Part shown: positions 2,483-15,506 of the stretch, piece after piece | Numbering within the stretch: the stretch's first letter is position 1 | Layout of the letters: each line of letters begins with the position of its first letter | Assembly: GCA_043819795.1 (NCBI GenBank) | Contig: JBDREN010000146.1 | Location: 1 to 15,506, forward strand | Source of the DNA: Elusimicrobiota bacterium | GTDB taxonomy: Bacteria; Elusimicrobiota; Elusimicrobia; UBA1565 | Direction of reading: 5' to 3' | DNA: 15,506 bases | Program-made: the position numbers and the translations under genes | The notes under the pieces: model-generated | Told to the model about the DNA's origin: nothing | Databases searched by the model: none | The model's input: only the letters and a program-made list of their open reading frames with translations

Positions 2483-2511
2483 TGCTATACGACTTGGGCT
2501 GCGGTATAGCA
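2483..2511. repeat. 8-bp inverted repeat with 13-bp spacer (possible operator or hairpin)
   Basis: TGCTATAC (2483-2490) and GTATAGCA (2504-2511); the stem can be extended outward with G-U pairs. Confidence 0.45.
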
Positions 2512-2745
2512 TGTATATTGGCCTCTGCCTCCCGCTCCGGGGGCGGACGTAATTGCGAGCACTGCGTCCATCCTCACCCCCTGCCTCGAGTGTCCCGGCC
2601 AGGATGCGGCGGCGCGCCTCATGGGGGAGCCGGGCCTGGTGCTCATATAGATTCTAGATATTCCGTGTGACGTCCGCAATGAATGATTGCATTGCTGGCT
2701 ATGCTAATACTGAGCGGGCGGTCAGCTTGCCTTCTTTGAGAATCC

Positions 2746-2896
2746 GGCGTCCGGCTGAAACTTATGAAACTTTTAGAATGGGCAGGCGTGGCATGAGGCG
2801 GTCATGCGTTCGTATCGAAAGCCCTGCGGCCCTGCCGCCGGCACGATGCGGATTGGCCCGCGGCGCCATAAGTTTCATGAGTTTCAGCCTGACGCC
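2746..2896. repeat. 27-bp inverted repeat (25/27) with 97-bp spacer; each arm has tandem 9-bp TGAAACTYW units
   Basis: 2746-2772 is GGCGTCCGGCTGAAACTTATGAAACTT. The reverse complement of 2870-2896 is GGCGTCAGGCTGAAACTCATGAAACTT. Confidence 0.88.
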
Positions 2897-3242
2897 AGAA
2901 CCCGTTTATTGCGTGCGCCGGAGGCGGGACTTGCCGGGGCGAGCCCTGTTCATGGGGGTGGTGAGGACCGGGCCTGCGGGTGGCCCAGATCCGCGGAGGC
3001 AGGGCGTGTCGGAGGCCGACTTACGCATGCAGGAGGCCGAGACCCGAGCGGCGCCCTCTGGGCGACCGCGTCCCTGCCGCCGCGGAGCCTGGGCCAGGAC
3101 CCGCCGGCCGCTAGCGAACGCTTACCATGCGTTCTAGCGCGTCCCCGCTGCACAATGATCGGCCCTGCCGACGGATAGACCGCTTACCGGTCAAGGCTGG
3201 ACGGGCGCCCGACGATCGCGCCGCGGGCAGGGATTCGGGAGG

Positions 3243-6200
3243 CTACGCGGTCTGGCGGGCGGGGGCGGCCGGCTGGTCGATGGGCGCCAGGAGGCTCTCC
3301 GTGCGGCGGCGCAGCCACTCCCACACGGCGGCCAGGAGGGCGGCCATCACCACGGCCGCCGCGGCCCAAGGCAGCCAGGGGAAGCGCTTGAAGGGCGACT
3401 GCTCGCGGCGCTCGCGCCGGCGCTCCTGCTTGAGCTCGTCGGCCAGCTCCTTGAGCCGCCGCTGCTCGGCGAGGAGCTCCTCGCTGAGCCGCTCGAGCTC
3501 GGCCTGCGCCCGGCTCATCTCGGCCTCGAGCGCGCGCTGAGCGCCGATCCGCCAGGCCATGGGATGCGCGGCGCCCCAGAGCTCCCCTTCCTGGCTCCGC
3601 GCCCGGCCCAGCTCCTCGCGCTTGGACGCCAGATCCGACTGCGCCCGCTCCGAGGCCCGCTCGAGCGCGGGGGCCCGGTCGCGCGCCGCGCGCTCCTGGT
3701 CCTCGATGCGCTGCGGGAAGCCCTTCAGGTTCTCGACGATGCGCCCGTACTGGTAGGCCCCGGGCCGCAGGAGCACGCGCCGCTCCACGCGGTCCACGGC
3801 GATGTGGCCGGGGCTGCCCGAGAGCCGCACCGGCCGCTCGCCCGTGTAGGAGTCCGGGTCGGTGGCGACCGCCCCGTCGCGCAGCGCGTCCTCGATGGCC
3901 TCGATCCCGGTCCGCTCGGTGACGCGGGAGGTCTGGTACATCAGGGCGCTCGCGTCGGAGTCGAGGGCCGGGGCCCGGCCGCGGCGCTGCTCGATCCAGG
4001 TCGTCCGGACGCCGCCCTCGAAGTAGGAGAGCACGCCCCGGCTCGCGTTGAGCAGGTCCTCGGTCCGGTGGACGATGGCCCGATCGAGCGACGGCCGCCC
4101 GAAATGGATGTCCTTGTCGTCGCTGCGGGCGTTCTTGCCGTAGATGTTCTGGTGAGGAAGGATCGCGGAGTCGAGCCTCACCTTGTCGGGGAACTGGTTC
4201 GCGTCGAAGTACCAGTTGACGGGATCGGGCAGCAGGTCGAGGATGTCGATGAAGTGGGCGACCTTATGGAGCGGGCCCTGGTGGTTGGTCGCCCCGCCCT
4301 CGAACTTGTACATGTGCGCCCGGCCCAGGAAGTGGTGCTGGTTCGGGTCGCGGCCGGTCAGGAGCTCGACCGGGGTGCGCAGGATGCCGCCGGGGATCTC
4401 GCCGATGATATTGGACCAGTTCGAGAGCTTGGTGCCGTAGCCCTTGGCCTTCTGCTGCTCGCGGCCGGCGTCGGTGAGGCGGGCGATGAAGTACCGGCGG
4501 CTGAGCATGACCGGCAGGCCGTTGGCGCCGGCCGCGGGGTCGATGTAGCGCTTGAGGCGGTAGTTCGGGTCGATCTCGACGCCGCCGTCCACGTAGCGCG
4601 CCGGCCGGCTCTTGCCGTCGGCCGCCGGCGTCACATGCACGTCCTCGATCGTCCATCCCTCGGCGGCCTTCTCCAGGGAGTCCATGTCCCAATAAAGCCG
4701 CACGGCCGAGGCGTCCCGGTCCAGGACCGCCCCGAAGAGCTCGCCGCTGTGCTTGGTCACCGGAGCCTCGGCCAGGCCGATCCGCTCGTCGAGCGCGCCC
4801 CGCCCGAATACGGGGAGCCCGGTCACGCGGGCGAGCCCGCCGCGGGCGTCGAAGTGGAACGCCGTGTCGCGGCTCACGAACAACCGCATCGGGCTCGTGG
4901 CCGAAAGCTCCGCCTGCTCGCGCTCGCGCGACCGCTCATCCACGCCGGCCGCCTCGAGGGCCGCCATGTAGTCCGCTCCCAGGGCCTGCCAGTGGCCCGC
5001 GTGGGCGATCAGGCGGCCGCTGCCCTTGAAAGCGCGCAGGGCCTTGTCCGCCTCGCGACGGGTGGAGAGGTGCGCCTCGTCCAGCTTGTTGAACTTCTCC
5101 AGCTGCGCCGAGAAGGCCCGCTGCGCGGCCTTGTAGCGCCCGTCCTCGACCACGCGCTTGTGCAGCTCGGCCTTCACCCGCGCCTGGTGGTCGGCCTCGG
5201 TCTCGCCGGGAAGCCTCGGAAGCTCCTGCTCGACGTCCCGCTCGAAGCGCGCCCGCGCCTCGGCCTCGATGAGCTGATGGCGCTTGCCCTCGGCGTCGGT
5301 CAGCTCCTTCTGGGCGTCCCGGCGGGCGCGCGCCGCGGCCTCGGCCGCGTTGGCCTTCTCGAGCAGGTTCTGCGCCTGGCGGAAGGTGGCGGGAGAGTTC
5401 TGCAGGGCCTTGACCTCTTGGTCGAACTCCTCCTGGGTCAGGATGAGCACCCGCGGCCGGCCGTCGGCGTCGACGGCGTAGCCGTAGCTCTGGAGCTTCA
5501 CGCCGATCCAGCCCACGGTCCGCGCGCGGCGCTCGTGCTCGGCCGCGTACTCGATCATCTTCGCCACGCCCTTCGGGCCCGCCTCGAGCCGCGCGAAATC
5601 CGCCGCCTCGCCGGCGCCCAGCCGGTCCAGGTGGGCGCTCAGGCTCTCGCGCGTCGGGAAGGCGTCGTGGGAGATGTCCTCGTCCCCGAGGTACAGGATC
5701 GTCTCGACGCCGGCCGGGTCGTCCCAAAGCGACTTGAGCGGATGCCCGGCCGGGCGCAGGCCGGAGCGGTCCGCCTCGCGCGAGAAGTAGAAGGCCCGGC
5801 CGCTCCGGCTGAGCCGCTCGGCCTCCTCGTAGCTCATGCCCCGCGCGCCGCTCCCGTCGAGGCTCACCGCCGCGAACTCGTGCTTCTCGAAGACCTCGCC
5901 CAGCCCCAGGCGGGCCTTGTTCGTCTCGAGCGCCTCCCGTGCGAAGGCGCTCACGGCCGCGGCGGCGTCCACGCCCGCGATCACCTCGTGGCGGACCTTC
6001 TCGCCCGCCCGGGCCTTGAGCCACGTCCGTCCCGACTCGTCGGTCTCCAGGTCCCCGAGCCGGCCCAGCTGATCCCGCGTGTACCACTCCGCCGCGCTCC
6101 AGGTCCGGCGTCCCTGCGCGTCCGTCTCTACCACGGCGTAGAGCGGTGCGAGCCCCGAGACCTCGCCGGAAGCCCAGCGCCCGCGCAGCTCAACGAGCCG

Positions 6201-9200
6201 GCGCAGCGCGTCGGACGCCTCGCGCAGCTGGGGCGCCGGCGCGCGCTCGAAGCGCCGGGCCGCGAGCCGCGCCTCCTCGAGCATGATCAAAGAGTCGATG
6301 GCCAGCATCCCGCGCCCGTGATTGGCCAGCGCCACCTGCCGCCGCAGCGTCTCGCGCACGGAGAGCAGCCCGTTGAGCGACCGGACCATCCGCTCGTTGC
6401 CGCGCACCTCGGGCATGGCGAAGAGCTTCACGACCTCGGCGTCGTAGGCCTCGACCGCCTTGAGGTATTCGTCGAGGGCCGCGTCCCGCATGATGAAGTC
6501 GGTGGGCGAGAGCCTGCCGGAGCCCGCGGACTTGTACTTGTTGCCGACGTAGCTCTCCAGCAGGGCCTGCCGCGACGCGAGCCGCTCGCCGCGCAGGACC
6601 TCGATGCGCTCGAGCGCGCCCCGGACCGCGAAGCGCGTCTCGGCGTCCACGCCGGCCATGGGACCGCGGGGATCGGGAGACGCGTCGAGAGTGAAGACCT
6701 CCTCGATGATGTGCCGGCGTATCCCGCTCAGGTCGGCCATCTCGCTCTGCTGGAAATCGGCCGCGCCCTCGATCCGGCCCTCGAGGTCGCGCATCAGCAC
6801 GCCCAGCACGCTCTGCCGCGAGGCGGGGTCCGCGCGAGCGGCCGAGAGCAGCGCTCCGAGCCGCGCCCGCACCCGCTCGCGGCGGCCTTCCACGTCCGCC
6901 TGCGTCAGGAGCTTGAGCCGCTCGGCGGCGCCGAAGGAGCCGCTGTGCCGCACGATCTCGGCGTCGCGGCGCATCTTCCGGTAGGTCTGGGCCTCGTCGA
7001 GAAGGAGCCGCACGGCCTCGGCGTCGATCCCCGGCGCGCCCCTGAGCGCGGCGCCCAGGCGGCCGGCGAATTCCTCGTCGAGCATCCGGCCGGCCCCGTA
7101 GTCCAGGAGCGCGTCCATCCGGTTCGAGAAGAGCGCGGCGCCGGAGAGCTCCTGCGTGCCGGCCGGGAGATTCAGGAGCCGCTCCTCGGCGTACCCGACG
7201 GCCTCGAGCTCGGTCACCAGCTCGATGAAATCGTTCTTGAGCTGGGCCATGCTCCCGCTGAGCTCGATCCAGGCGCCCACGAGCGCGTCCTGCGCCGAGA
7301 GGAGCTCGTCTTGGTCGATCAGCCCGTCCTGGGCCCTGGCGACGGCCGAGAAGTAGTCCTCCTGGGCGGCCTCCACGAGGGCGTTCTGGCGCTCCACGAG
7401 GGTAGCGCGCTCCTTCACCGAGCTCATCAGGAGGTGCAGCCGCAGCGCCAGCCCCTGCATGCGGCCCTGGCTCTGAAGCTCGCGCCGGACCGAGTCGGAG
7501 AGCACGCGCTCGAGGCCCTGCTCGATCGACCGGGGATCGGGCGCCTCGAAGAACAGTCCGCCCACGCCCTGGGCCCGGAAGATCCCGAAGGCCGCCACCG
7601 GGGTGAAGCCCTTGTAGCTCATCCGCTCGGCGATCACGTCGGCCCGGATCTGGTGGATCAGGCCGTCCTCGTTGCCGAAGGACTCGGGCACGCCGTCCTC
7701 GAAGATCGTCCGGCGGATCTGGTCGATCCGGAGCGCCTCGACCTCGTCCACGAAGCGCTTGGCCACGCGCCGGATGTCCTGCGACTCGCCCGAGCGGTCC
7801 TTCGGCAGGAGCCTGGCGATGTCCGAAACGGTCGTTTCGGCCGGCAGGCCGAGCAGCGCCTTGATGCGGGCGGCCTGGACGTCGAGGCGGCCTTTGATGC
7901 CATGCTTGAAGGTCTCGAAGTCGCGCTCGGCCCGGCTCCCCTGCGGCTCCCGCGGACCCTGGGAGAACTCCTCGGCCCAGCGCAGCAGGCGGACGTTGGT
8001 CTCGAACTGCGAGAGCAGGATGCCGGCGCGGGACCGGGCCGCGGCCGCGTCGTTGCGGTGGACGCGGTCGGCCTTGTCCATGCGCAGCTCCGCCAGGGCC
8101 ATCAGCACCTCGGGCGGGGTCTCCATGCTGCGCATCCGGAACTCCACCCAGCTGTCGATGAAGTGCTCGTTGATCTTGTCGAAGCCGAGCGACGTGTGCG
8201 CGTAGTAGTAGCGGAAGTTCCCGGCCACGCGCCCGCGCCGAAGCTCGGGCTCGAAGGCCTCGACCTCGGGCTCGCGCCCGGCCGACGCCAGGGACTGCTC
8301 GGCGTCCATCAGCGCCTGCTCGAGCTTGTGGTAGCTGCGCGGCAGGGCGTTGGGGCCCTCCTGCGCCGGCGCCTCTCCGAGCCTCGCCAGCGCGGCCCGG
8401 AGGTTAAGACTCTTGGCGCTCCTCTCGATCTCATCGAGGCGGGACGCCGCGTCGGTCCGGCTCTTCGCGGCCTCGCTCGCCTGCTCCACGGCGTCGAGCT
8501 CGGCGTTGAGCTGGGCCCGGCGGGCCGCCAGGTCGCCCTCGTAAGCGCTCTGGGCCCGCTCGGCCTCGAGCGTCTGCACCCGGGCGGCCGCCATCAGGTC
8601 CGGGTCGCCGATGGTCTCCTCCGAAAGGGCCTTCATGAGCCGCCCCAGGGAGCGCACCGCCAGGGAGACGGGCTCGAGGTAGAGCTCCTCGACCTTCATG
8701 CCCTTGTCGATGATGAGCTCGACCGCGCGGGCCACCTTCACGCGGGCGTCGAGGATGGCTCCGTCGGCCGCCTCGGGACGCTTCTGGGCGAGGATCGCCT
8801 CGAGGTCCGCCAGCGCCTGCTCGGCGCTGATGCCGATATGAAGCTCCGCCCCCTCCGGACGCCCGAGAAGGTAGTTCAGGCTCGCCTTAGCCTGCTCGCC
8901 GGCCAGCTGGGTCACGTGCAGTCGGCGGCGGGCCTGGTCCAGCTCGCGCTGCAGGCGCGGGGCCTCGCCCCGGGAGTCGCCATCGCCCGCGCGGCGCTGG
9001 GCGGCGCGCAGGTCCGCCTCGAGCCGCGGGATGATCTCAGCGTTGAGCAGGCGCTCGGCGTCGCGCGCGCGCTCCCAGGTCGCGATGTTCTGGAAGAAGG
9101 AGACGGCCAGGTCGGCCTCGAGCCGGGTCTGGAGGTTCCTGTAGTATTCCTCGTGCTGCTCTCCCTGGGCCTTCTGGAGCTCGGCGAGCTCGGCGCTCTT

Positions 9201-12200
9201 GAGCTCGAAGACCGGGATCGGCGTGACCCCGAAGCCCGTGATGCCGAAGGAGGGCAGCCAGCCCACGCCCGCGGCCGTGAAGTTGTTGCCGATGTGGATG
9301 TCGGCGTAGAACTTCTGGATGCGGTGGGCGTTGGCCCGCGTCATGTGCTCGGCGGCCTGCTGGCGCAGCCCGATCTCCGAGATGCTCCGGGAGTTCCGGC
9401 CGGCGATGTCGAAGGCCTCCTGGAACGAGCCCACGCGCTCGGAGGCGCCGGAGCCCTGGCGCGGCCGGGCGAAGGAGGCGTCGAGCTGCGACCAGCCCGC
9501 CGCGAGCGCGGCCTTGGACTCGGCCCTGAGGATGTTGGAGACGTACCAATGCCACTGCCCGAAGGATTCGCGCAGGCGGCTCTCGGGCACCAGCCCGTTG
9601 CGGTAGGCCCGGATCGCGTCGGCGAGCGCGTCGGCCGAGCGCGCGACCTGGGGGCTCAGGGTCCGGGCGCCGGAGGACCAGAAGCGCGCCTCCGCCAGCT
9701 CCTGGCGGGCGCGGAGGCCGTATTCCTCGTGGACCTCCAGGATCTCCTGGACCGTCGCCTCGCCCTCCAGCTTATAGGCGTTGTTCCGATCGCCGGAGAC
9801 GGGGTCGTAGATCGGCACGCGCAGCGTGACGCCCGCGCCCAGGACCTGGTTCGACAGGTGGTCCTGGATCTGCGTCCCGAAGGAGAGCGTCAGCCGCTCG
9901 ATGAACGGGATCCAGTCCATGAGGTTGAAGGGCTCGGGGCCCATCTGGGCCTCGATCTCGTCCTGGTCGAGCGTGTGCAGCACTTTCCCCAGCCGGTCCG
10001 GCGTCTGAGTGAGCGAGTGGATTTCGGCCAGCAGGGCCTTGAGCTCGCCCGCGCTCAGGTTATCGAAGGGCAGCTCTTCATAAGGAGAGCGCCCCGAAAG
10101 CATGTTGTAGCGGATGCTCGCCTGGTCGAGGCGGAGCTTGGCTTCGCTCTGCTTGGCCGCGCCCTCGCGCCGCAGGGCCTCGGTGGGCGCCCGCTCGGCC
10201 ATGAAGCCGGCCATCTTCAGTTCCCACTGGGCCTGGGCGATCTCGGTCACCGTCTCCTGCCACTGCTTGGTCAAATCGAGCATGCGGAACTGCAGCCGCA
10301 GCGACTCGCGGTAGAGATGCTTCATCTTCGCGTCGATGAGCTGCTTCTGCCCGCGCGTGAGGGTCAAAGACGTGTAGGTCCCCGCGACCGGCCCGCCGCC
10401 GATGGCCCGGTCCGCGGGGGCATCCCCCACCGGGTTGGTCACGAACCCCACCATGCCCTGGATGCGGGTGTTGTCCGCGAAGGCGCCGGCCTTGCGCAGC
10501 TCCCGGATCTCCTTGGCGAGGGTCCCGATGTCCTGCTTGACGAGCTTCATGCCCACGTCGCGCATGAAGACCGCGCGCAGCTCGGAGACCCGGGTGTCGT
10601 CCTCGCCTTCCTTGAAGAAATCGTCGAGCTCCTGGTTGTAGGCCTTGAGCGCGTCGGCGCCCTGGAGGCCCTCGGCCGTGCCCTTGACGACCGAGCTCCA
10701 CAGCTGGCCGAGCGTGAACGAGGAGTTCATGCTGATCGTCAGCCGGTTGGGCCGGCCCACGTAGCGCGATCCGTAGCCCGCCGACACGTTCGAGTAGTCG
10801 CCGAGCTTCTTGGAGGCCTGCAGGTAGTAGGTCCTCGTGTCGCCGAGGATCCGGCCCTCGCCGCTCAGCACGATGCCCTGGTTCGGCAGGGTCATGGACA
10901 CCCGGCCGGAGAGCGTGTTGTACTCGGTGCCCGCCTCCGCGCCGGCCTTCGCCGAGAGCACCATCCACGGCTCGCCGGAATCGTCGCGGAAGGTGAATCC
11001 CTTGAGGACCGTCACGCCGTAGGCGTCCTGGTTGTAGTCGTCGGTCCCTTCCTGGCGGGCCCAGTGGAGGTCCACGGTGAAGGCGTCGTCGGAGCCGATG
11101 AGCCTGGCCACGTCGAAGCTCGGGCCGATCTGCGTGCGCACGTAGCGCTTGTTGTCCCCGCGGGACTCGATGACCCAGTCCTTGTTGAGCTCCTTGTCCA
11201 GGTCCGTGAAGTCGAGGTTCATCTTCTGCATGAAGAACCGCGGGTCGTTGGCGTACATCCGCTGCTGCTCGGCGTTGAGCCGCATGACCTCGGTGAACTT
11301 GAGCGAGGTCTTCGCGCTGCCGCCGAACATGTGGGGCTTGTTGAAGGTGTCCTGGGTCGCGAAGTCCCCGAAGCCCGTCAGCGCGACGTAGAGGCGGTCG
11401 CCGAAGAGCATCATCGCGAAGTCGTCGAAGAGCATCATCCGGCTCTGGCGCGCCGTCGAGTCCATCTTCATGTCCGCCGGGATGTCCTGGAGGAAGCGGT
11501 GGAAGTCGACGTTCAGGTAGTTGACCCAGTTGGAGCCCTGGAGCGACTCGACCTGGACCTCGATGCCCTTGTCGCCGTAGGGGGCGTTGCGCTCGGTGGG
11601 AGGGCTCCCGAACTGGTAGCCGGTCACGCTGATGTTGTTGCCCCAGAGCTGGGCGATGTTGCCCAAGGTCACCCAGTTGCTGGTCTCCAGGGTGTGCGGG
11701 ACCGCGAACTGCGTCTGGTAGACCAGGTAGAATCCGTCGGCGTCCCCGAACTCCAGGATCTGCGAGCCGGGCAGGACGTTCGTCAGCGAGCGCGGGTCGT
11801 CGAGCAGGCGCTGGCGCAGCTCGCCCAGGTCCCTGGTCGAGGAAGCGCGCTTGAGGATGCTGGAGAAGATCGTATCGACGAACCTGCTGAAGTCGCGCTT
11901 CGGCACGATAATGGCCGAGGCGTCGCCATCGGAGCCGGCGGGCAGGTGCCAGCTGCCTCCCTTGATCCTCAGAGCCTCGATGCGCTGGCGCAGGCGCGGG
12001 TCGAGGCTGGCCGGGTCGTCGAGCGCCCTCAGCTCCGCGGCCAGCCTCTGCTGGGAGTCGTCGGTGCGGCCGAGCGTCCACTCCAGGGACTGCTCGGAGC
12101 GCTTGAAGCGGGCCTCGAGGTCCCGGAACCGGATGTTCTGCTCGAGGACCGCCTTCGTCTTGTCCTGGATCTTACGCATGTCCTCGGCCACCCGCTTGAG

Positions 12201-15200
12201 CGCGCTCTCTTCCTTGGGGTTGAGCTGACCGAGCCAATTCTCGACGTCCCGGCGCTGGTCCTGGAGGTCGTCGAAGGTCTTCTTGAGCGCGTCCTTCATC
12301 TCCAGGATGGCGTCGAGCTCGTTGTCGGCCACGGTGCCCGAGTTCTCGTAGAGGTCCCGGGTCGCGTCGTAGTAGGTGCCCATCTGGTCGATGGTCTCGA
12401 AGGAGTCGTTGTCCCAGCCGATCTGGGTGCCCCAGAAATCGATGCCCTCGCGAGTGATCGCGTTGAGCTGGCCGAAGATGCTCAGCTTCCGGTCCACCAC
12501 GGCGTCGGCGGACTCGGTCGTACCGTCGGAGGCGGCGTAGGCGGAGTCCTTATCGAGGTCCGTGAGGGCGTTCTCGAGCCCCGCCTGGGCCCGGGCCAGG
12601 AAGTCCCGGGCGAAGGGGACCTTCACGCTGAGGCTCTCCTCGGCGGCCTCCACCACGCCGTCCGAGTAGAGGAAGCGGGCCACCGCGTAGGCCGCGGCCG
12701 CGCTCTCGAGCTCCTGGTTCGTGGAGGGCACCAGCCGCTTGGCCGTCTCGAGCGCCAGGAGGGCCACCATGGTATTGTCGTCCACCTTGAGCGGATCCTG
12801 CTCGCCCTGGGGGACGGCCATCTCGTCTCCGTCGCCGCCCATGCTCACGGATTCGCCCTTGTCCTTGTACTCGTTGCCGATGTCCGTCAGGAGGTCGCCG
12901 AGGGTCTGGTAGACCTTGTCGTCGATCAGGGCCTTGATCCGGTCCACGCTGGCCTGGCTCTCGGCGTCGATCCCGTCCGGCAGGTTCCACGAGCGCAGGT
13001 TGAAGCGGCCCTCGGTCAGCTGGTCGATCCGCGCCAGGATGCCGTTGATCTCCACGTGCTGGCGGTTGATGTCGCCGGTGCGCAGGCGCTTCTCGGCCGT
13101 GTACTGCGAGATCTTCTTGGGCAGGCTGTAGGGCTGGGGCTGCCCGTAGACGTCTTCCATGTCGGTATTGTTGGGATCGGTGCGCCGCCGGAGGTCGTCG
13201 ATGTGATCGAGCACGCCCTCGTGGTAGCCCTTCTCGTCGGTGTAGCCGTTCAACAGGTCGTTGAACTTGTCGCGCATCGCCCCGATGTTGGCCTCCGCCG
13301 CGGCCGCGTCCCCGTCTTTGGCGCCCCAGGTGGCCAGGGCCCACGGCAGGGTCCGGTCCAGGGCCTTCTCTATTCCTTCATAGAGCGTGATCTGGCCGTC
13401 GAAGAGCTTGGCCCAGGTGTCGCCGGTGGGGCTGTAGGAGTCGATCGTATCCTGCTGGTAGGGGATCGCGTGGGTCGAGATGACGCTCTTCGCCTCGACG
13501 AGCACCGGCTGCAGCCGGTTCAGAAGAGCCAGCTTGCGGTCCACCAGGGCCTGGTTGGCGGCCAGAGACGGAGTGCCTCCCTGCACGAAGGCCACGTCCG
13601 CGTCCACATCGTCGATGACTGCCTGGACCGCCTCCACGACGTTCTCGTAGAGGGCCACGCTCTGAGGGACCGGGGAGGCGAGCGCCTCTTGGATGGTCTC
13701 CACCGTGGCGTCGGCCTTGGACCAGCCGATCACGGCCCGCCCGGCCTGCGGCAGCAGGCGCCCTATAAGGAACAGCGCCATCTTCGCGTTGAAGTTCTCG
13801 GGGGTGAACTCGCTCGGGAAGGTGATCCCCGTGATCTTGTCCGGATAGGCCTCGATCGCGTCCTGCATGGCCTCGAGGTCCCGCCCGGAGAGGGCCGGCA
13901 GGTCCGCGCCGGGCACCACGCTCATGATCTCGGCGGCCGCCGCGTCGATGCGCGCCGTCAGCTGGCCGGCCTCGCCGCTGTAGCGGCTGACGTCGCCCTG
14001 CGCCTCGGCGAGCCTCTTCGGGAGCGAGAGGGGATGCGAGTCGCCGAAGTCGTCGTCCTCGGTGCCCGAGTAGGAGGCGTCCAGGCGGTTGCGGAACTCG
14101 TCGAGGTCCTCCTGGTAGTTCGCCAGCTCGTTCTGCCAGTGGGTCTTGCGCTCCGAGAGCAGCTGCAGCGTCGTGGACGCGTCGGGGTTGGTGACGTTGA
14201 ACTCGGGCTCGCCCGGGACCGCGAGGACCAGCACGCCCGCGAACTCGAGCGGGGCCGAGGCCACGTCGCTCAGGCCGTCGTTCACCGTCTGGATGTAGTC
14301 CTCGATGTCGGCCAGCTTTTCCTGGAGCTCCTTGAGCGAGAGGAAGTCCTCGTCGCCGGGCTTGCCGTTGGTGCTCCACTCGACGAGCTTCGGCAGCTCG
14401 GCCTTGCGCCGGTTGTACTCGCTGAGGGCGTCCCCACTATCGTGCGCGTCCTTGCCGTCGATGTCGCTCAGGAGCGCGCTGACCTCGGTGCGGAAGGCGC
14501 TGATGCGCCGGACCGCGAGCTCCGTCTGGTCCGAGAGCTCCTTCATGTCCTTCTGCGAGGCCGTCTTCTCGGCGATATCGTCGCGGACCTTCTGGCGGAA
14601 CTCCTCGGAGCGCTGCCGGTTGGCCTCGGTCTCGGCGAGGTCCCGGCCGGCCTGGTCCCGCACGCCGCGGATCCTCTCGAGCTTGCGGTCGAGCATCTGC
14701 TGCATCTCGAGCAGGGCCTTCTGCGCGGCGTCGATCGTGTTCAGCGAGAACGCGAGGTCCATGACCATCGCCAGCCGCGAGACGTTCTTGTGGAACTCGA
14801 GCATCTCCCCGCCGCCGCGCCGCTCGCGCAGCGCCAGGTTCCGGGTCCGGGCCACGGCCGCCAGGAGCTTATCGAGCGCGTCGCGGTTGGCCAGCGCCCC
14901 GCGCGTCTCGTCGCGCAGGCCCTCGAGCTCCGAGACGATCGGCTCGATGCGGCCCTGGGCCTCTTCGTCGAGCCGGGTCCGCGGCGCCGGGGCCTTGCGC
15001 CCGTCCACGGGGCCGCGCTTGTAGTCGACCAGGGCCTGCTCGACCGCCTTCATGACCGCGAGCTTCGTGCCGAGGGAGTCCTGATACCCGGGGTTCTCGG
15101 TCTCGGTGGGCAGCAGGCTCTCGTAGTAGGTCTCCAGCTCCTTTAAAGCGCTCAGGACGTCCTTGCCCGCCGCGGGCTTCCCGGCGGCCAGGTCGTGGAT

Positions 15201-15506
15201 CTCGGCCAGCTTCGAGAGGACGTACTCTTCGTCGCGCTTCTCGCCCAGGAGCCGCAGGGTCTCCTGATAGGCCTTCTCCTCGTCGGGGTCTACGGGCTCG
15301 CTGTTCTCATCGAGCCAGGACATGTGCTGCTGCCGGCCGTCGATCTGGGCGTGCAGCAGCTCGATGCGCCCGCGGACGCCCTCGAGCTCGCGCTCGATGT
15401 CGCCGGCGCCGCGCCTGGCCCGCTCGGCCCGGGCCCGCATGGCCTCGGGCGTGTCCAGCTTGAAGCGGTTGTCCTCGCGGCGCGCCGTGTGGCCGGCCGC
15501 GCCCAC
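3243..15506 (-). CDS. Giant multidomain envelope protein (at least 4087 aa, probably 5'-truncated by the window) with helical repeats, a beta-barrel-like block, tandem TolC/OEP-like repeats and a C-terminal TM anchor
   Basis: Uninterrupted 12.26-kb frame ending in TAG at 3243-3245. Third codon positions are strongly G/C-biased, and the amino-acid composition is natural with recognisable structural motifs. The listed GTG start coincides with the window edge and no signal peptide is visible, so the true start is probably upstream. Confidence 0.93.
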   Translation of the reverse strand: MGAAGHTARREDNRFKLDTPEAMRARAERARRGAGDIERELEGVRGRIELLHAQIDGRQQHMSWLDENSEPVDPDEEKAYQETLRLLGEKRDEEYVLSKLAEIHDLAAGKPAAGKDVLSALKELETYYESLLPTETENPGYQDSLGTKLAVMKAVEQALVDYKRGPVDGRKAPAPRTRLDEEAQGRIEPIVSELEGLRDETRGALANRDALDKLLAAVARTRNLALRERRGGGEMLEFHKNVSRLAMVMDLAFSLNTIDAAQKALLEMQQMLDRKLERIRGVRDQAGRDLAETEANRQRSEEFRQKVRDDIAEKTASQKDMKELSDQTELAVRRISAFRTEVSALLSDIDGKDAHDSGDALSEYNRRKAELPKLVEWSTNGKPGDEDFLSLKELQEKLADIEDYIQTVNDGLSDVASAPLEFAGVLVLAVPGEPEFNVTNPDASTTLQLLSERKTHWQNELANYQEDLDEFRNRLDASYSGTEDDDFGDSHPLSLPKRLAEAQGDVSRYSGEAGQLTARIDAAAAEIMSVVPGADLPALSGRDLEAMQDAIEAYPDKITGITFPSEFTPENFNAKMALFLIGRLLPQAGRAVIGWSKADATVETIQEALASPVPQSVALYENVVEAVQAVIDDVDADVAFVQGGTPSLAANQALVDRKLALLNRLQPVLVEAKSVISTHAIPYQQDTIDSYSPTGDTWAKLFDGQITLYEGIEKALDRTLPWALATWGAKDGDAAAAEANIGAMRDKFNDLLNGYTDEKGYHEGVLDHIDDLRRRTDPNNTDMEDVYGQPQPYSLPKKISQYTAEKRLRTGDINRQHVEINGILARIDQLTEGRFNLRSWNLPDGIDAESQASVDRIKALIDDKVYQTLGDLLTDIGNEYKDKGESVSMGGDGDEMAVPQGEQDPLKVDDNTMVALLALETAKRLVPSTNQELESAAAAYAVARFLYSDGVVEAAEESLSVKVPFARDFLARAQAGLENALTDLDKDSAYAASDGTTESADAVVDRKLSIFGQLNAITREGIDFWGTQIGWDNDSFETIDQMGTYYDATRDLYENSGTVADNELDAILEMKDALKKTFDDLQDQRRDVENWLGQLNPKEESALKRVAEDMRKIQDKTKAVLEQNIRFRDLEARFKRSEQSLEWTLGRTDDSQQRLAAELRALDDPASLDPRLRQRIEALRIKGGSWHLPAGSDGDASAIIVPKRDFSRFVDTIFSSILKRASSTRDLGELRQRLLDDPRSLTNVLPGSQILEFGDADGFYLVYQTQFAVPHTLETSNWVTLGNIAQLWGNNISVTGYQFGSPPTERNAPYGDKGIEVQVESLQGSNWVNYLNVDFHRFLQDIPADMKMDSTARQSRMMLFDDFAMMLFGDRLYVALTGFGDFATQDTFNKPHMFGGSAKTSLKFTEVMRLNAEQQRMYANDPRFFMQKMNLDFTDLDKELNKDWVIESRGDNKRYVRTQIGPSFDVARLIGSDDAFTVDLHWARQEGTDDYNQDAYGVTVLKGFTFRDDSGEPWMVLSAKAGAEAGTEYNTLSGRVSMTLPNQGIVLSGEGRILGDTRTYYLQASKKLGDYSNVSAGYGSRYVGRPNRLTISMNSSFTLGQLWSSVVKGTAEGLQGADALKAYNQELDDFFKEGEDDTRVSELRAVFMRDVGMKLVKQDIGTLAKEIRELRKAGAFADNTRIQGMVGFVTNPVGDAPADRAIGGGPVAGTYTSLTLTRGQKQLIDAKMKHLYRESLRLQFRMLDLTKQWQETVTEIAQAQWELKMAGFMAERAPTEALRREGAAKQSEAKLRLDQASIRYNMLSGRSPYEELPFDNLSAGELKALLAEIHSLTQTPDRLGKVLHTLDQDEIEAQMGPEPFNLMDWIPFIERLTLSFGTQIQDHLSNQVLGAGVTLRVPIYDPVSGDRNNAYKLEGEATVQEILEVHEEYGLRARQELAEARFWSSGARTLSPQVARSADALADAIRAYRNGLVPESRLRESFGQWHWYVSNILRAESKAALAAGWSQLDASFARPRQGSGASERVGSFQEAFDIAGRNSRSISEIGLRQQAAEHMTRANAHRIQKFYADIHIGNNFTAAGVGWLPSFGITGFGVTPIPVFELKSAELAELQKAQGEQHEEYYRNLQTRLEADLAVSFFQNIATWERARDAERLLNAEIIPRLEADLRAAQRRAGDGDSRGEAPRLQRELDQARRRLHVTQLAGEQAKASLNYLLGRPEGAELHIGISAEQALADLEAILAQKRPEAADGAILDARVKVARAVELIIDKGMKVEELYLEPVSLAVRSLGRLMKALSEETIGDPDLMAAARVQTLEAERAQSAYEGDLAARRAQLNAELDAVEQASEAAKSRTDAASRLDEIERSAKSLNLRAALARLGEAPAQEGPNALPRSYHKLEQALMDAEQSLASAGREPEVEAFEPELRRGRVAGNFRYYYAHTSLGFDKINEHFIDSWVEFRMRSMETPPEVLMALAELRMDKADRVHRNDAAAARSRAGILLSQFETNVRLLRWAEEFSQGPREPQGSRAERDFETFKHGIKGRLDVQAARIKALLGLPAETTVSDIARLLPKDRSGESQDIRRVAKRFVDEVEALRIDQIRRTIFEDGVPESFGNEDGLIHQIRADVIAERMSYKGFTPVAAFGIFRAQGVGGLFFEAPDPRSIEQGLERVLSDSVRRELQSQGRMQGLALRLHLLMSSVKERATLVERQNALVEAAQEDYFSAVARAQDGLIDQDELLSAQDALVGAWIELSGSMAQLKNDFIELVTELEAVGYAEERLLNLPAGTQELSGAALFSNRMDALLDYGAGRMLDEEFAGRLGAALRGAPGIDAEAVRLLLDEAQTYRKMRRDAEIVRHSGSFGAAERLKLLTQADVEGRRERVRARLGALLSAARADPASRQSVLGVLMRDLEGRIEGAADFQQSEMADLSGIRRHIIEEVFTLDASPDPRGPMAGVDAETRFAVRGALERIEVLRGERLASRQALLESYVGNKYKSAGSGRLSPTDFIMRDAALDEYLKAVEAYDAEVVKLFAMPEVRGNERMVRSLNGLLSVRETLRRQVALANHGRGMLAIDSLIMLEEARLAARRFERAPAPQLREASDALRRLVELRGRWASGEVSGLAPLYAVVETDAQGRRTWSAAEWYTRDQLGRLGDLETDESGRTWLKARAGEKVRHEVIAGVDAAAAVSAFAREALETNKARLGLGEVFEKHEFAAVSLDGSGARGMSYEEAERLSRSGRAFYFSREADRSGLRPAGHPLKSLWDDPAGVETILYLGDEDISHDAFPTRESLSAHLDRLGAGEAADFARLEAGPKGVAKMIEYAAEHERRARTVGWIGVKLQSYGYAVDADGRPRVLILTQEEFDQEVKALQNSPATFRQAQNLLEKANAAEAAARARRDAQKELTDAEGKRHQLIEAEARARFERDVEQELPRLPGETEADHQARVKAELHKRVVEDGRYKAAQRAFSAQLEKFNKLDEAHLSTRREADKALRAFKGSGRLIAHAGHWQALGADYMAALEAAGVDERSREREQAELSATSPMRLFVSRDTAFHFDARGGLARVTGLPVFGRGALDERIGLAEAPVTKHSGELFGAVLDRDASAVRLYWDMDSLEKAAEGWTIEDVHVTPAADGKSRPARYVDGGVEIDPNYRLKRYIDPAAGANGLPVMLSRRYFIARLTDAGREQQKAKGYGTKLSNWSNIIGEIPGGILRTPVELLTGRDPNQHHFLGRAHMYKFEGGATNHQGPLHKVAHFIDILDLLPDPVNWYFDANQFPDKVRLDSAILPHQNIYGKNARSDDKDIHFGRPSLDRAIVHRTEDLLNASRGVLSYFEGGVRTTWIEQRRGRAPALDSDASALMYQTSRVTERTGIEAIEDALRDGAVATDPDSYTGERPVRLSGSPGHIAVDRVERRVLLRPGAYQYGRIVENLKGFPQRIEDQERAARDRAPALERASERAQSDLASKREELGRARSQEGELWGAAHPMAWRIGAQRALEAEMSRAQAELERLSEELLAEQRRLKELADELKQERRRERREQSPFKRFPWLPWAAAAVVMAALLAAVWEWLRRRTESLLAPIDQPAAPARQTA
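3303..3377 (-). other. C-terminal transmembrane helix with basic stop-transfer residues (within the giant CDS)
   Basis: WLPWAAAAVVMAALLAAVWEWL-RRR followed by a 19-aa tail; the only long hydrophobic stretch noticed in the visible protein. Confidence 0.8.
7194..10559 (-). other. Region encoding about six tandem TolC/outer-membrane-efflux (OEP)-like half-repeats (aa ~1650-2771)
   Basis: Recurring helix / beta-hairpin / long-helix pattern with OEP-like motifs: RYNMLSG, GAGVTLRVPIYD, AYRNGLV, SFQEAFDIAGRNS, LNYLLGRP, ALARLG, IKALLGLP, DGLIDQDELLSAQDAL. Confidence 0.68.
10707..11735 (-). other. Region encoding a putative outer-membrane beta-barrel (aa ~1258-1600)
   Basis: About 15 or more short amphipathic strands rich in Gly and aromatic residues: NISVTGYQF, GIEVQVES, YLNVDFHRF, LYVALTGFGDF, FGGSAKTSLKF, FTVDLHWAR, YGVTVLKGFTF, LSGRVSMTL, IVLSGEGRI, YYLQASKKL, VSAGYG, LTISMNSSFTL. 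Confidence 0.62.
12345..14115 (-). repeat. Protein-level tandem duplication of a ~300-350 aa helical module in the giant CDS
   Basis: Colinear motif pairs: DDFGDSHPLSLPKRL / DVYGQPQPYSLPKKI (900 nt apart), GRLLP / KRLVP, IDDVDADVAF / LTDLDKDSAY, QALVDRKL / DAVVDRKL (1047 nt apart), LFDGQITLYE / YYDATRDLYE. Boundaries are approximate. Confidence 0.75.

Follow-up and report, generated by a model that had tools for sequence, protein, structure and literature searches.

How could one bacterial polypeptide combine the parts of an outer-membrane channel with a C-terminal segment of the kind that holds proteins in the inner membrane, and what might such a protein do? The question is raised by a contig of 15,506 nucleotides (JBDREN010000146.1, here C146, of assembly GCA_043819795.1; this whole stretch is called the window), on whose minus strand a giant open reading frame (ORF; 3243..15506, 4,087 stop-free codons) forms the 3' part of a gene for a protein of about 5,060 amino acids. 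A preliminary description of the window had read outer-membrane modules and a C-terminal anchor in this ORF, in an order that was confirmed by codon pattern, hhalign-detected duplication, periodicity, comparison of sliding windows with TolC, and hydropathy; its suggestion of a possible Elusimicrobiota origin was right as well. We propose, with somewhat less than even confidence, that the giant protein belongs to an undescribed export system, in which this single polypeptide provides the exit through the outer membrane as well as the frame that spans the periplasm.

The giant gene and its TolC-like region

The giant frame has a GC content of 0.70/0.44/0.96 at codon positions 1/2/3. Because this is a coding-type pattern, an ORF of 3,860 amino acids on the plus strand was rejected as a gene and is regarded as an antisense shadow. 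At its 5' side the giant ORF is open to the contig end, where GTG is merely the first triplet. The remaining codons lie at the end of contig C72 of the same host genome (4.99 Mb, 241 contigs): the last 20 nucleotides of C72 are the first 20 of the C146 gene strand, this 20-mer is unique, and the frame continues across it. The assembly holds 55 such end-to-end contig overlaps of varied length, and tblastn searches with the N-terminal parts of homologs matched the C72 end in seven of nine cases, the other two queries being paralogs of an anchorless type discussed below. We infer the join from overlap, frame and homology rather than from reads, as two DNA read runs gave only short low-depth pieces, none spanning the giant gene. 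An ATG at C72:13840 yields a protein of 5,063 amino acids, with a possible alternative start about 14 codons downstream. The recovered upstream contig thus supplies the start, a putative signal peptide, a second conserved hydrophobic block and neighbouring genes. The chain then runs, in order, from the signal peptide and hydrophobic block through a duplicated helical rod, the barrel-like block, six repeat-sized units and domains without a known family to a coiled coil and the transmembrane (TM) helix followed by RRR.

Neither of the two ways in which the initial description might have failed at the level of the gene, a split of the modules among separate genes or a chimeric assembly, is borne out. 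We examined 71 loci, of which five were duplicates. At 61 of the 66 distinct loci all detected modules lie in one ORF; three of the five broken loci contain N gaps, two have overlapping frames, and no break falls between the barrel and the TolC-like units. Alignments of homologs to the window protein extend to as many as about 4,070 residues, at 28-53% identity. An assembly chimera was rejected as very unlikely, because colinear single ORFs recur in dozens of genomes. A search for shorter proteins with the TolC-like region returned four matches among 8,000 candidates scored, all labelled partial, and no stand-alone form of the units was found, all six occurring inside chains of 3,500-5,900 amino acids. 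That this is a real single gene is practically certain.

As a whole, the window protein has no Pfam or NCBIfam match above cut-off. The TolC-like region, residues 1640-2775 of the window part, was recognized with a profile built from 39 ordinary Elusimicrobiota TolC proteins. Among 19 sliding windows of 390 amino acids, three matched this profile with hhalign probabilities (P) of 88-96% and two with 11-13%, while the remaining 14 stayed at or below 1.6%. Against a profile of the single outer-membrane efflux protein (OEP) repeat, 14 control windows stayed at or below 1.3%. The similarity is confined to residues 1640-2800 when both comparisons are taken together, and to 1660-2850 with the profile of the 39 TolC proteins. 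Conversely, a profile of M1, the first of three modules of about 390 amino acids (M1-M3), retrieved from the whole six-frame genome only the giant gene and one ordinary TolC (E 0.001). The ESM Atlas placed the whole region at 0.97 to TolC/OEP clusters. Pfam OEP matches six of 33 aligned homologs and was seen in each of M1-M3 in some of them; it is present below cut-off in two of eight M1 segments and in five of eight M3 segments, over cut-off in one. It exceeds the cut-off in homolog L016 and in the distant homolog P0055 (R3, 28.7 bits) and stays below it on the window protein itself (18.1 versus 22 bits). These comparisons make it highly probable that the region derives from TolC, so that the original TolC call stands for part of the region.

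The strength of this homology differs from unit to unit. It is firm for R2 and R3, and weak or probable for R1 and R6; R4 and R5 are candidate units, assigned by spacing and motifs. R1 reaches P 3.8% against the OEP repeat and P 51-59% against R3, and its counterpart in a distant clade of homologs matches the OEP repeat at P 60.5%. In R4 a single short strand is followed by a conserved amphipathic helix (window 8619-8669) in the place of the second strand (helix moment 0.59 versus strand moment 0.31), and the distant clade has the same pattern. R5, at P 0.2% against the OEP repeat, consists of a beta-hairpin and two helices with LLGL at the end, and is kept in the distant clade (P 86% to R5). 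That clade has all six units in order, each at P 78-98% to its near counterpart. Strand hairpins are apparent in R1, R2, R3, R5 and R6, the periodicity being weak for R6 and for one strand of R3, and an L-x-G-type motif ends five of the six units. From the second strand to this motif, R1, R4 and R5 measure 88, 73 and 95 residues, compared with 106-122 in 76 ordinary repeats.

An ordinary TolC protomer contains two repeats, and three protomers build one duct (PMC8277102, within section 6.2). Since two repeats in each of three protomers make six, the six units are the exact count for one single-chain duct. We consider it more likely than not, from this arithmetic and from the conserved order, that they do form one duct. 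The unequal units would make such a duct asymmetric, possibly with a gap in its side or with a wall of mixed alpha/beta structure.

The barrel, the rod and the anchors

The block that precedes the TolC-like region (Table 1) is the most conserved of the protein and is rich in aromatic residues and glycine, with 12% aromatics versus 6-7% in other large regions. Of its 18 candidate strands, which were picked by eye, 13 show stronger beta-type than helix-type periodicity, four the reverse, and one a tie. In the ESM Atlas, the nearest named clusters are all outer-membrane barrels, NfrA_C and BcsS among them, at scores of 0.82-0.84 that serve as a lead only. Residue patterns and this language-model lead together argue for a probable outer-membrane barrel; the earlier barrel call is not contradicted, though it has gained no family or structure match. 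The host genome carries Omp85/BamA homologs.

With a heuristic (basic residues plus a hydrophobic core) rather than SignalP, we recognized a signal-peptide-like start in 27 of the 31 homologs whose 5' end is closed; two of the misses are frameshifted and two fail narrowly. The part encoded on C72 continues with a low-complexity linker and a conserved domain of about 470 amino acids, in which conserved arginines precede conserved hydrophobic helices (about 714-800, counted along the C72 part). The rod that follows is conserved in all paralog types from about residue 190 of the window part onward, and searches with its first segment gave weak coiled-coil-type matches only. Its two helical copies match each other at P 99.2% (E 8e-20), and the long amphipathic helix that leads to the barrel is also detectable in the distant clade and in Omnitrophota proteins. 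The longest homologs (L016, L021, L023, L030 and L033; 5,400-5,650 amino acids) have an extra N-terminal insertion without Pfam match, which in four of these five contains more hydrophobic helices at about residues 290-580.

Table 1. Features of the giant gene. Residues are counted along the window part of the protein; positions refer to the window unless another contig is named.
Feature	Residues	Position	Strand	Basis
5' part of the giant gene, about 980 codons		G000:C72:13840-16787 (locus L073)	+	20-nt overlap, frame, tblastn
Helical, charged N-terminal rod segment	1-440	14187..15506	-	composition
Duplicated helical module, copy 1	442-695	13422..14183	-	hhalign
Duplicated helical module, copy 2	733-1043	12378..13310	-	hhalign
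Amphipathic helix before the barrel, about 105 residues, Pro/Gly-poor	1057-1161	12024..12338	-	
Probable outer-membrane beta-barrel, about 18 strands	1255-1600	10707..11744	-	alignment, conservation, periodicity
TolC-type repeat R1, helical hairpin shorter than normal	1640-1812	10071..10589	-	
TolC-type repeat R2	1822-2012	9471..10043	-	hhalign P 94.5%, E 8e-8
TolC-type repeat R3	2027-2220	8847..9428	-	hhalign P 96.9%, E 2e-10, full length
Degenerate repeat R4, short helices	2226-2385	8352..8831	-	P 1.8%, not significant
Putative repeat R5	2388-2556	7839..8345	-	spacing, hairpin periodicity and end motif only
TolC-type repeat R6	2572-2775	7182..7793	-	hhalign P 31.5%, E 5e-4
Helical and alpha/beta domains, about 1,150 amino acids, no known family, kept in anchorless paralogs		3657..7109	-	
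C-terminal coiled coil, about 85 residues, 78% A/E/L/Q/K/R	3950-4035	3402..3659	-	
C-terminal hydrophobic helix with flanking tryptophans, then RRR		3303..3377	-	

At the C-terminus, residues 4044-4062 form the most hydrophobic 19-mer of the protein (Kyte-Doolittle value 1.89), followed by WLRRR; the only motif before this helix is a W-x-W pattern. Helix and basic tail are conserved in the anchored homologs (type A) and are not universal. The tail is present in 27 of 28 distinct, unbroken, 3'-complete ORFs that have the N-terminal hydrophobic domain and in 0 of 14 complete ORFs that lack it, a count of non-independent kin under a rule that was set after the sequences had been seen and loosened once, and one that leaves out six 5'-open ORFs without the N-terminal domain, of which one has the tail. 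The preliminary description had proposed to check in homologs whether domain order and C-terminal helix are conserved; the order is kept in homologs, and the helix belongs to the anchored type. The anchorless forms comprise a paralog class (type B) and the distant clade, and several genomes hold both anchored and anchorless types. In a FastTree tree from which P0070 was excluded, eight anchorless proteins form one clade and two are scattered among anchored ones; because of a long-branch warning and the midpoint root, we draw no order of anchor gain or loss. For type A, in which both hydrophobic segments co-occur, we hold an intact chain in both membranes to be slightly more likely than not. 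The idea of one polypeptide bridging the two membranes is strengthened by the new N-terminal part, with its signal peptide and an additional conserved hydrophobic block.

Within the host's own family and order, 33 of 41 genomes have a match to the barrel region; across the phylum, the barrel profile matches 67 of 401 Elusimicrobiota genomes. These matches fall in the three families of the host's own order (10/11, 49/57 and 2/3 genomes) and in two further families (4/4 and 1/1); elsewhere among the 401 genomes there were none, including 0/121, 0/58 and 0/60 in three large families. The module thus appears near-universal in one free-living Elusimicrobiota order, and it was not found in the small-genome lineages searched. 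Among 1.84 billion representative proteins, 87 match; ten distant matches were looked up, of which seven belong to clusters that are Elusimicrobiota-labelled or without a name and three to Omnitrophota-labelled ones. A profile search of the six-frame host genome found no paralog of the giant. This genome contains ten other open frames of 6,300-12,300 codons, some of which may be antisense shadows (on contigs C218, C15, C19, C230, C2, C38, C56, C105, C156 and C82); the barrel and TolC-unit profiles matched none of these.

Neighbouring genes and the Omnitrophota giants

The flanks of ten relatives and C72 were scanned for conserved neighbours, giving 89 clusters, from which 40 proteins, mostly of recurring clusters, were searched against Pfam. 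Upstream of the giant gene, a gene c0 occurs in nine of the ten relatives' flanks, a gene c1 in seven and a gene c2 for an exported protein of about 1,100 amino acids in seven, and C72 has the same order. The C72 part of the giant and the neighbours c2 and c3 have no Pfam or NCBIfam match. Downstream, seven of ten flanks carry a gene for a dCache-HAMP-PAS sensor kinase and four of ten a LysM-FecR gene. The 40 scanned proteins include no adaptor (membrane-fusion) or RND protein, and one ABC and one MFS protein, both from a single genome (G013). The comparison with type I secretion and RND efflux, made at the outset, is accordingly a loose one, since the conserved neighbours include neither an adaptor nor an RND or secretion ABC gene.

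The neighbour c1 (L073:3199-11061) encodes 2,600 amino acids here and 2,500-3,100 in relatives and was found in 34 of 41 genomes. Its product has a signal-peptide-like start, a periplasmic-type N-terminal domain and a hydrophobic segment near residue 667, and resembles a very divergent SecA motor with a helical insertion of about 700 amino acids between its halves. The superfamily 2 (SF2) helicase motifs come in SecA order; DExD is present in 27 of 27 sequences and the others in 11-27 of 27, depending on the motif. Against a SecA profile, the part with Walker A and motif Ia reaches P 84% (E 7e-6), with a cropped query and the deeper profile only, while whole-protein hhalign of c1 against SecA and against P0068, a protein described below, was not significant. 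An ordinary SecA is encoded elsewhere in the host genome. The gene lies upstream on the same strand in seven of ten fetched flanks and in the host genome; among 29 relatives with both c1 and a giant, it is on the same contig and strand upstream in 14 and downstream in one.

Directly upstream of the anchored gene lies c0 (L073:12718-13632), in which a RAYT/IS200-like HUH domain (Y1_Tnp) is fused to a DnaA_C-type helix-turn-helix (HTH). It holds this position in nine of ten relatives and at 28 distinct loci, and it was not seen beside type B genes. Such constancy of place points to a regulator or nuclease that has been domesticated rather than to a mobile element. Between c1 and c0, a 436-codon ORF (L073:11259-12566) resembles the first 250 or so residues of the giant and has two hydrophobic helices at its end; by its similarity it is a putative truncated duplicate of the giant's signal peptide and linker. 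The type B genes L039, L040, L041, L047 and L134 adjoin genes for exported TPR + Ser/Thr kinase proteins, in arrays at three loci.

The barrel block recurs in giant proteins of the related phylum Omnitrophota. In P0068 (Omnitrophota-labelled, partial) it shares one chain with SecA_DEAD, M23 and LysM domains. In P0070 (Omnitrophota-labelled, 6,932 amino acids), a 1,3-beta-glucan synthase domain recognized by Pfam (77 bits versus a cut-off of 37) is part of the chain that carries the barrel block and TolC-type units, and R2, R3 and R6 come after the barrel in order (P 18%, 52% and 94%). A search for further homologs of the P0070 type returned P0070 itself only, and one for homologs of P0074, among proteins of 3,283-5,000 amino acids, returned none, so that the Omnitrophota evidence rests on four proteins. 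No glucan synthase gene was found among the scanned neighbours of the Elusimicrobiota giant genes. What are separate genes in Elusimicrobiota and fused domains in Omnitrophota suggests that the module serves inner-membrane motors or polymerases.

A possible export system and its alternatives

How could these parts work together? According to the export reading, the Sec system would carry the chain across the inner membrane and the signal peptide would be cleaved, while the N-terminal hydrophobic block and the C-terminal TM helix with RRR would hold both ends in that membrane. The long helical rods would reach across the periplasm, and the barrel of about 18 strands would enter the outer membrane. 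Barrels with an even number of strands, like TolC protomers, begin and end in the periplasm. Because the strand count is even, the chain would be back in the periplasm after the barrel, and because barrel and protomer alike start and end there, the topology would be self-consistent, provided that the N-terminal block has an even number of helices. The six units could then make up three protomers, each unlike the others, that together close one asymmetric TolC-type duct within the chain, and in this duct the shortened hairpins of R1, R4 and R5 and the helix of R4 could form a lateral opening. No membrane-fusion adaptor would take part; energy and substrate would come from inner-membrane partners, most often the upstream SecA-like ATPase, and the cargo would be a surface macromolecule, either protein or polysaccharide. 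We regard an export role in this form as a serious possibility rather than a probable one. With greater doubt, we extend it to a secretion system shared by Elusimicrobiota and Omnitrophota and undescribed so far, in which a portable ~18-strand barrel and an asymmetric TolC pseudo-trimer with a helix-gated lateral opening would be held to the inner membrane by their own polypeptide, with a SecA-derived motor or a fused glycosyltransferase supplying them.

Several observations weigh against these proposals. First, the duct is not uniformly TolC-like: even merged profiles bring neither R4 nor R5 to significance against the OEP repeat, the mutual similarity of M1, M2 and M3 is weak or absent (M2 versus M3 and M1 versus M3 are dissimilar), and profile searches found no significant PDB sequence match for the TolC-like region. 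The barrel block likewise matches neither Pfam families nor the PDB, and its Atlas score stays below 0.9; indeed, PDB searches with profiles of all regions of the giant and of c1 gave nothing significant. Second, the motor is uncertain. The second half of c1 reaches only P 5% against SecA, c1 does not match Pfam SecA_DEAD, it lies on another contig than the giant in 14 of 29 genomes, and four genomes have c1 without any giant that we could find. P0068 has no predicted TM segment between its SecA domain and its barrel, which is at odds with a simple topology, and a search of the host genome for the glucan synthase family PF02364, run without a positive control, found none. Third, anchorless forms of 3,500-4,200 amino acids keep signal peptide, rod, barrel, TolC-like units and C-terminal domain, and one of them, L133, sits in the conserved locus. 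The anchors are thus apparently dispensable, an optional layer on the core, and the two-membrane bridge, strengthened by the new N-terminus, is qualified by these forms and leaves room for processing. Finally, we know of no case in which the barrel-assembly machinery (BAM) inserts two barrels that lie inside a chain whose ends are both tethered.

A first alternative is a structural role as a tether or scaffold, without any transport: a degenerate TolC-like region and the barrel would serve as outer-membrane anchors, the rods as spacers and the hydrophobic helices as inner-membrane feet. Such a role would agree with the shortened hairpins of R1, R4 and R5 and the missing strand of R4, with the lack of an adaptor or transporter neighbour, and with a chain that is mostly helical rod and whose anchors are co-conserved. 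We nevertheless hold it to be rather unlikely, since conservation is highest in the barrel and the TolC hairpins and not in the rods, anchorless paralogs are retained beside anchored ones in the same genomes, and the glucan synthase fusion of P0070 points to polymer export.

The chain could also be a polyprotein, translated whole and then cut into a barrel, TolC-like subunits and anchored pieces, with the TM helix and RRR perhaps serving as a cleaved sorting signal. The biogenesis of internal barrels is otherwise hard to explain, and the tail, which has no cytoplasmic domain behind it, has the TM-plus-basic form of CTERM signals. For Omnitrophota, cleavage of giant proteins has been raised in a passage of 10.1101/2023.11.21.568195. 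Yet the chain contains no protease domain and has no conserved protease neighbour, and the gene was never found naturally split, though a split would be easy if the parts worked apart. CTERM sorting models found none of ten tails at cut-off, the best being GVDTG_CTERM with 13 bits versus 29 in two of the ten. We judge a polyprotein improbable.

We find it more improbable still that only R2, R3, R6 and perhaps R1 stem from TolC and that an oligomer, for example a trimer, builds a channel from several chains, or that there is none. The profile failure of R4 and R5 and the dissimilarity of M3 to M1 and M2 would be expected then; on the other side stand six repeat-sized units, with the end motif in five, that give the exact count for one duct, each of them separately conserved out to the distant clade. 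Least probable is a trans-envelope sensing or uptake device, whose barrel would bind a ligand, host or prey surface and signal through the rods to inner-membrane partners: the recurrent sensor kinase, LysM-FecR and Y1_Tnp-HTH neighbours speak for it, but kinase and FecR genes are not adjacent in the host genome, where an insertion sequence (IS) lies downstream, they are absent beside type B genes save for unrelated Ser/Thr kinases in some, and TolC folds are exit ducts in their known roles as the relevant part of PMC8277102 describes them.

Would an export system of this kind fall within a known class? In textbooks, the TolC channel is a homotrimer, and an outer-membrane barrel is as a rule a protein of its own that ends near its last strand. 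With outer membrane factors (OMFs; TolC, OprM, CusC; PF02321 OEP), the giant shares, in the units where both strands are apparent, a repeat of two strands plus long helices, with profile similarity that is significant in R2 and R3 and weaker in R1 and R6, and it has two repeat-sized units per module of about 390 amino acids. Unlike these homotrimers of ~450-residue proteins, it carries three unlike protomer-sized modules in one chain, has short hairpins in R1, R4 and R5, a helix for a strand in R4 and no adaptor neighbour, and embeds its TolC-like region between a barrel and 1,300 further residues. In type I secretion and the tripartite RND, MFS and ABC pumps, too, an assembly that spans the envelope opens to the outside through an OMF-type duct, but the giant has no membrane-fusion or RND neighbour and an ABC gene at only one of ten loci; its conserved neighbour is instead a SecA-like ATPase with a signal-peptide-like start. 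By its sequence, the giant contains OEP-derived repeats and would in part work as OMFs do, yet it falls outside the homotrimeric OMFs and outside the type I and tripartite systems.

Synthase-dependent polysaccharide export (BcsA-BcsC, Alg8/44-AlgK-AlgE, PgaCD-PgaA, NfrB-NfrA) places a helical periplasmic scaffold before a barrel of 16-18 strands. The giant's helical rod followed by a probable barrel is similar, and P0070 carries a GT2-type glucan synthase in the same chain. In contrast to these systems, the giant has no TPR scaffold or family match and a TolC-like region after its barrel, and a linked GT2 synthase is found only in the Omnitrophota protein P0070, not beside the Elusimicrobiota genes. 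The giants of Omnitrophota, as portrayed in the accessible text of 10.1101/2023.11.21.568195 and 10.64898/2026.06.07.730766, are likewise very long and membrane-targeted and have divergent SecA-like motors, and the barrel block occurs in P0068, P0070 and P0074; here, however, the SecA-like motor is encoded by a neighbouring gene of its own, and no Pfam domain is present in the protein of about 5,000 amino acids.

The accessible text of 10.64898/2026.06.07.730766 reports no credible beta-barrel calls in Omnitrophota giants and contains no mention of OEP, PF02321, efflux or porin. TolC has no mention in the accessible text of that study, of 10.1101/2023.11.21.568195, of PMC12057145 or of PMC11573180, although the preprints' supplements may list such proteins, and a term search in the accessible text of 10.1101/2023.11.21.568195 did not find OEP or efflux. 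We found no description of a single-chain TolC or of this giant family in the literature covered, outside which lie subscription journals. The arrangement is thus unlike any described system that we found: folds that are themselves old are put together in a new way, into an apparent system that is new as well and whose function is deduced from them.

If the extended reading is right, no natural TolC channel made of a single chain would have come before the giant, and it would also be the first protein known to combine two barrels with two inner-membrane anchors and so to be integral to both membranes. Three diverged protomers in one natural chain would show how a symmetric efflux duct can turn asymmetric and specialized, and with this protein one could test how BAM copes with barrels that lie inside a chain anchored in the inner membrane. 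Since the module recurs in Omnitrophota giants, it would offer a concrete answer to the question by what route these giants, or what they produce, get through the outer membrane.

A few minor features of the window lie downstream of the giant gene, where a scan for promoters and terminators gave nothing above chance. On the plus strand, positions 333-2051 encode a DDE transposase of 572 amino acids with an N-terminal HTH (Pfam DDE_Tnp_1, 31 bits), an IS near which C146 ends. An ORF of 86 amino acids without family follows on the minus strand (2070-2330) in a low-GC stretch, and a 22-nucleotide direct repeat at 2354-2403 lies just upstream of it.

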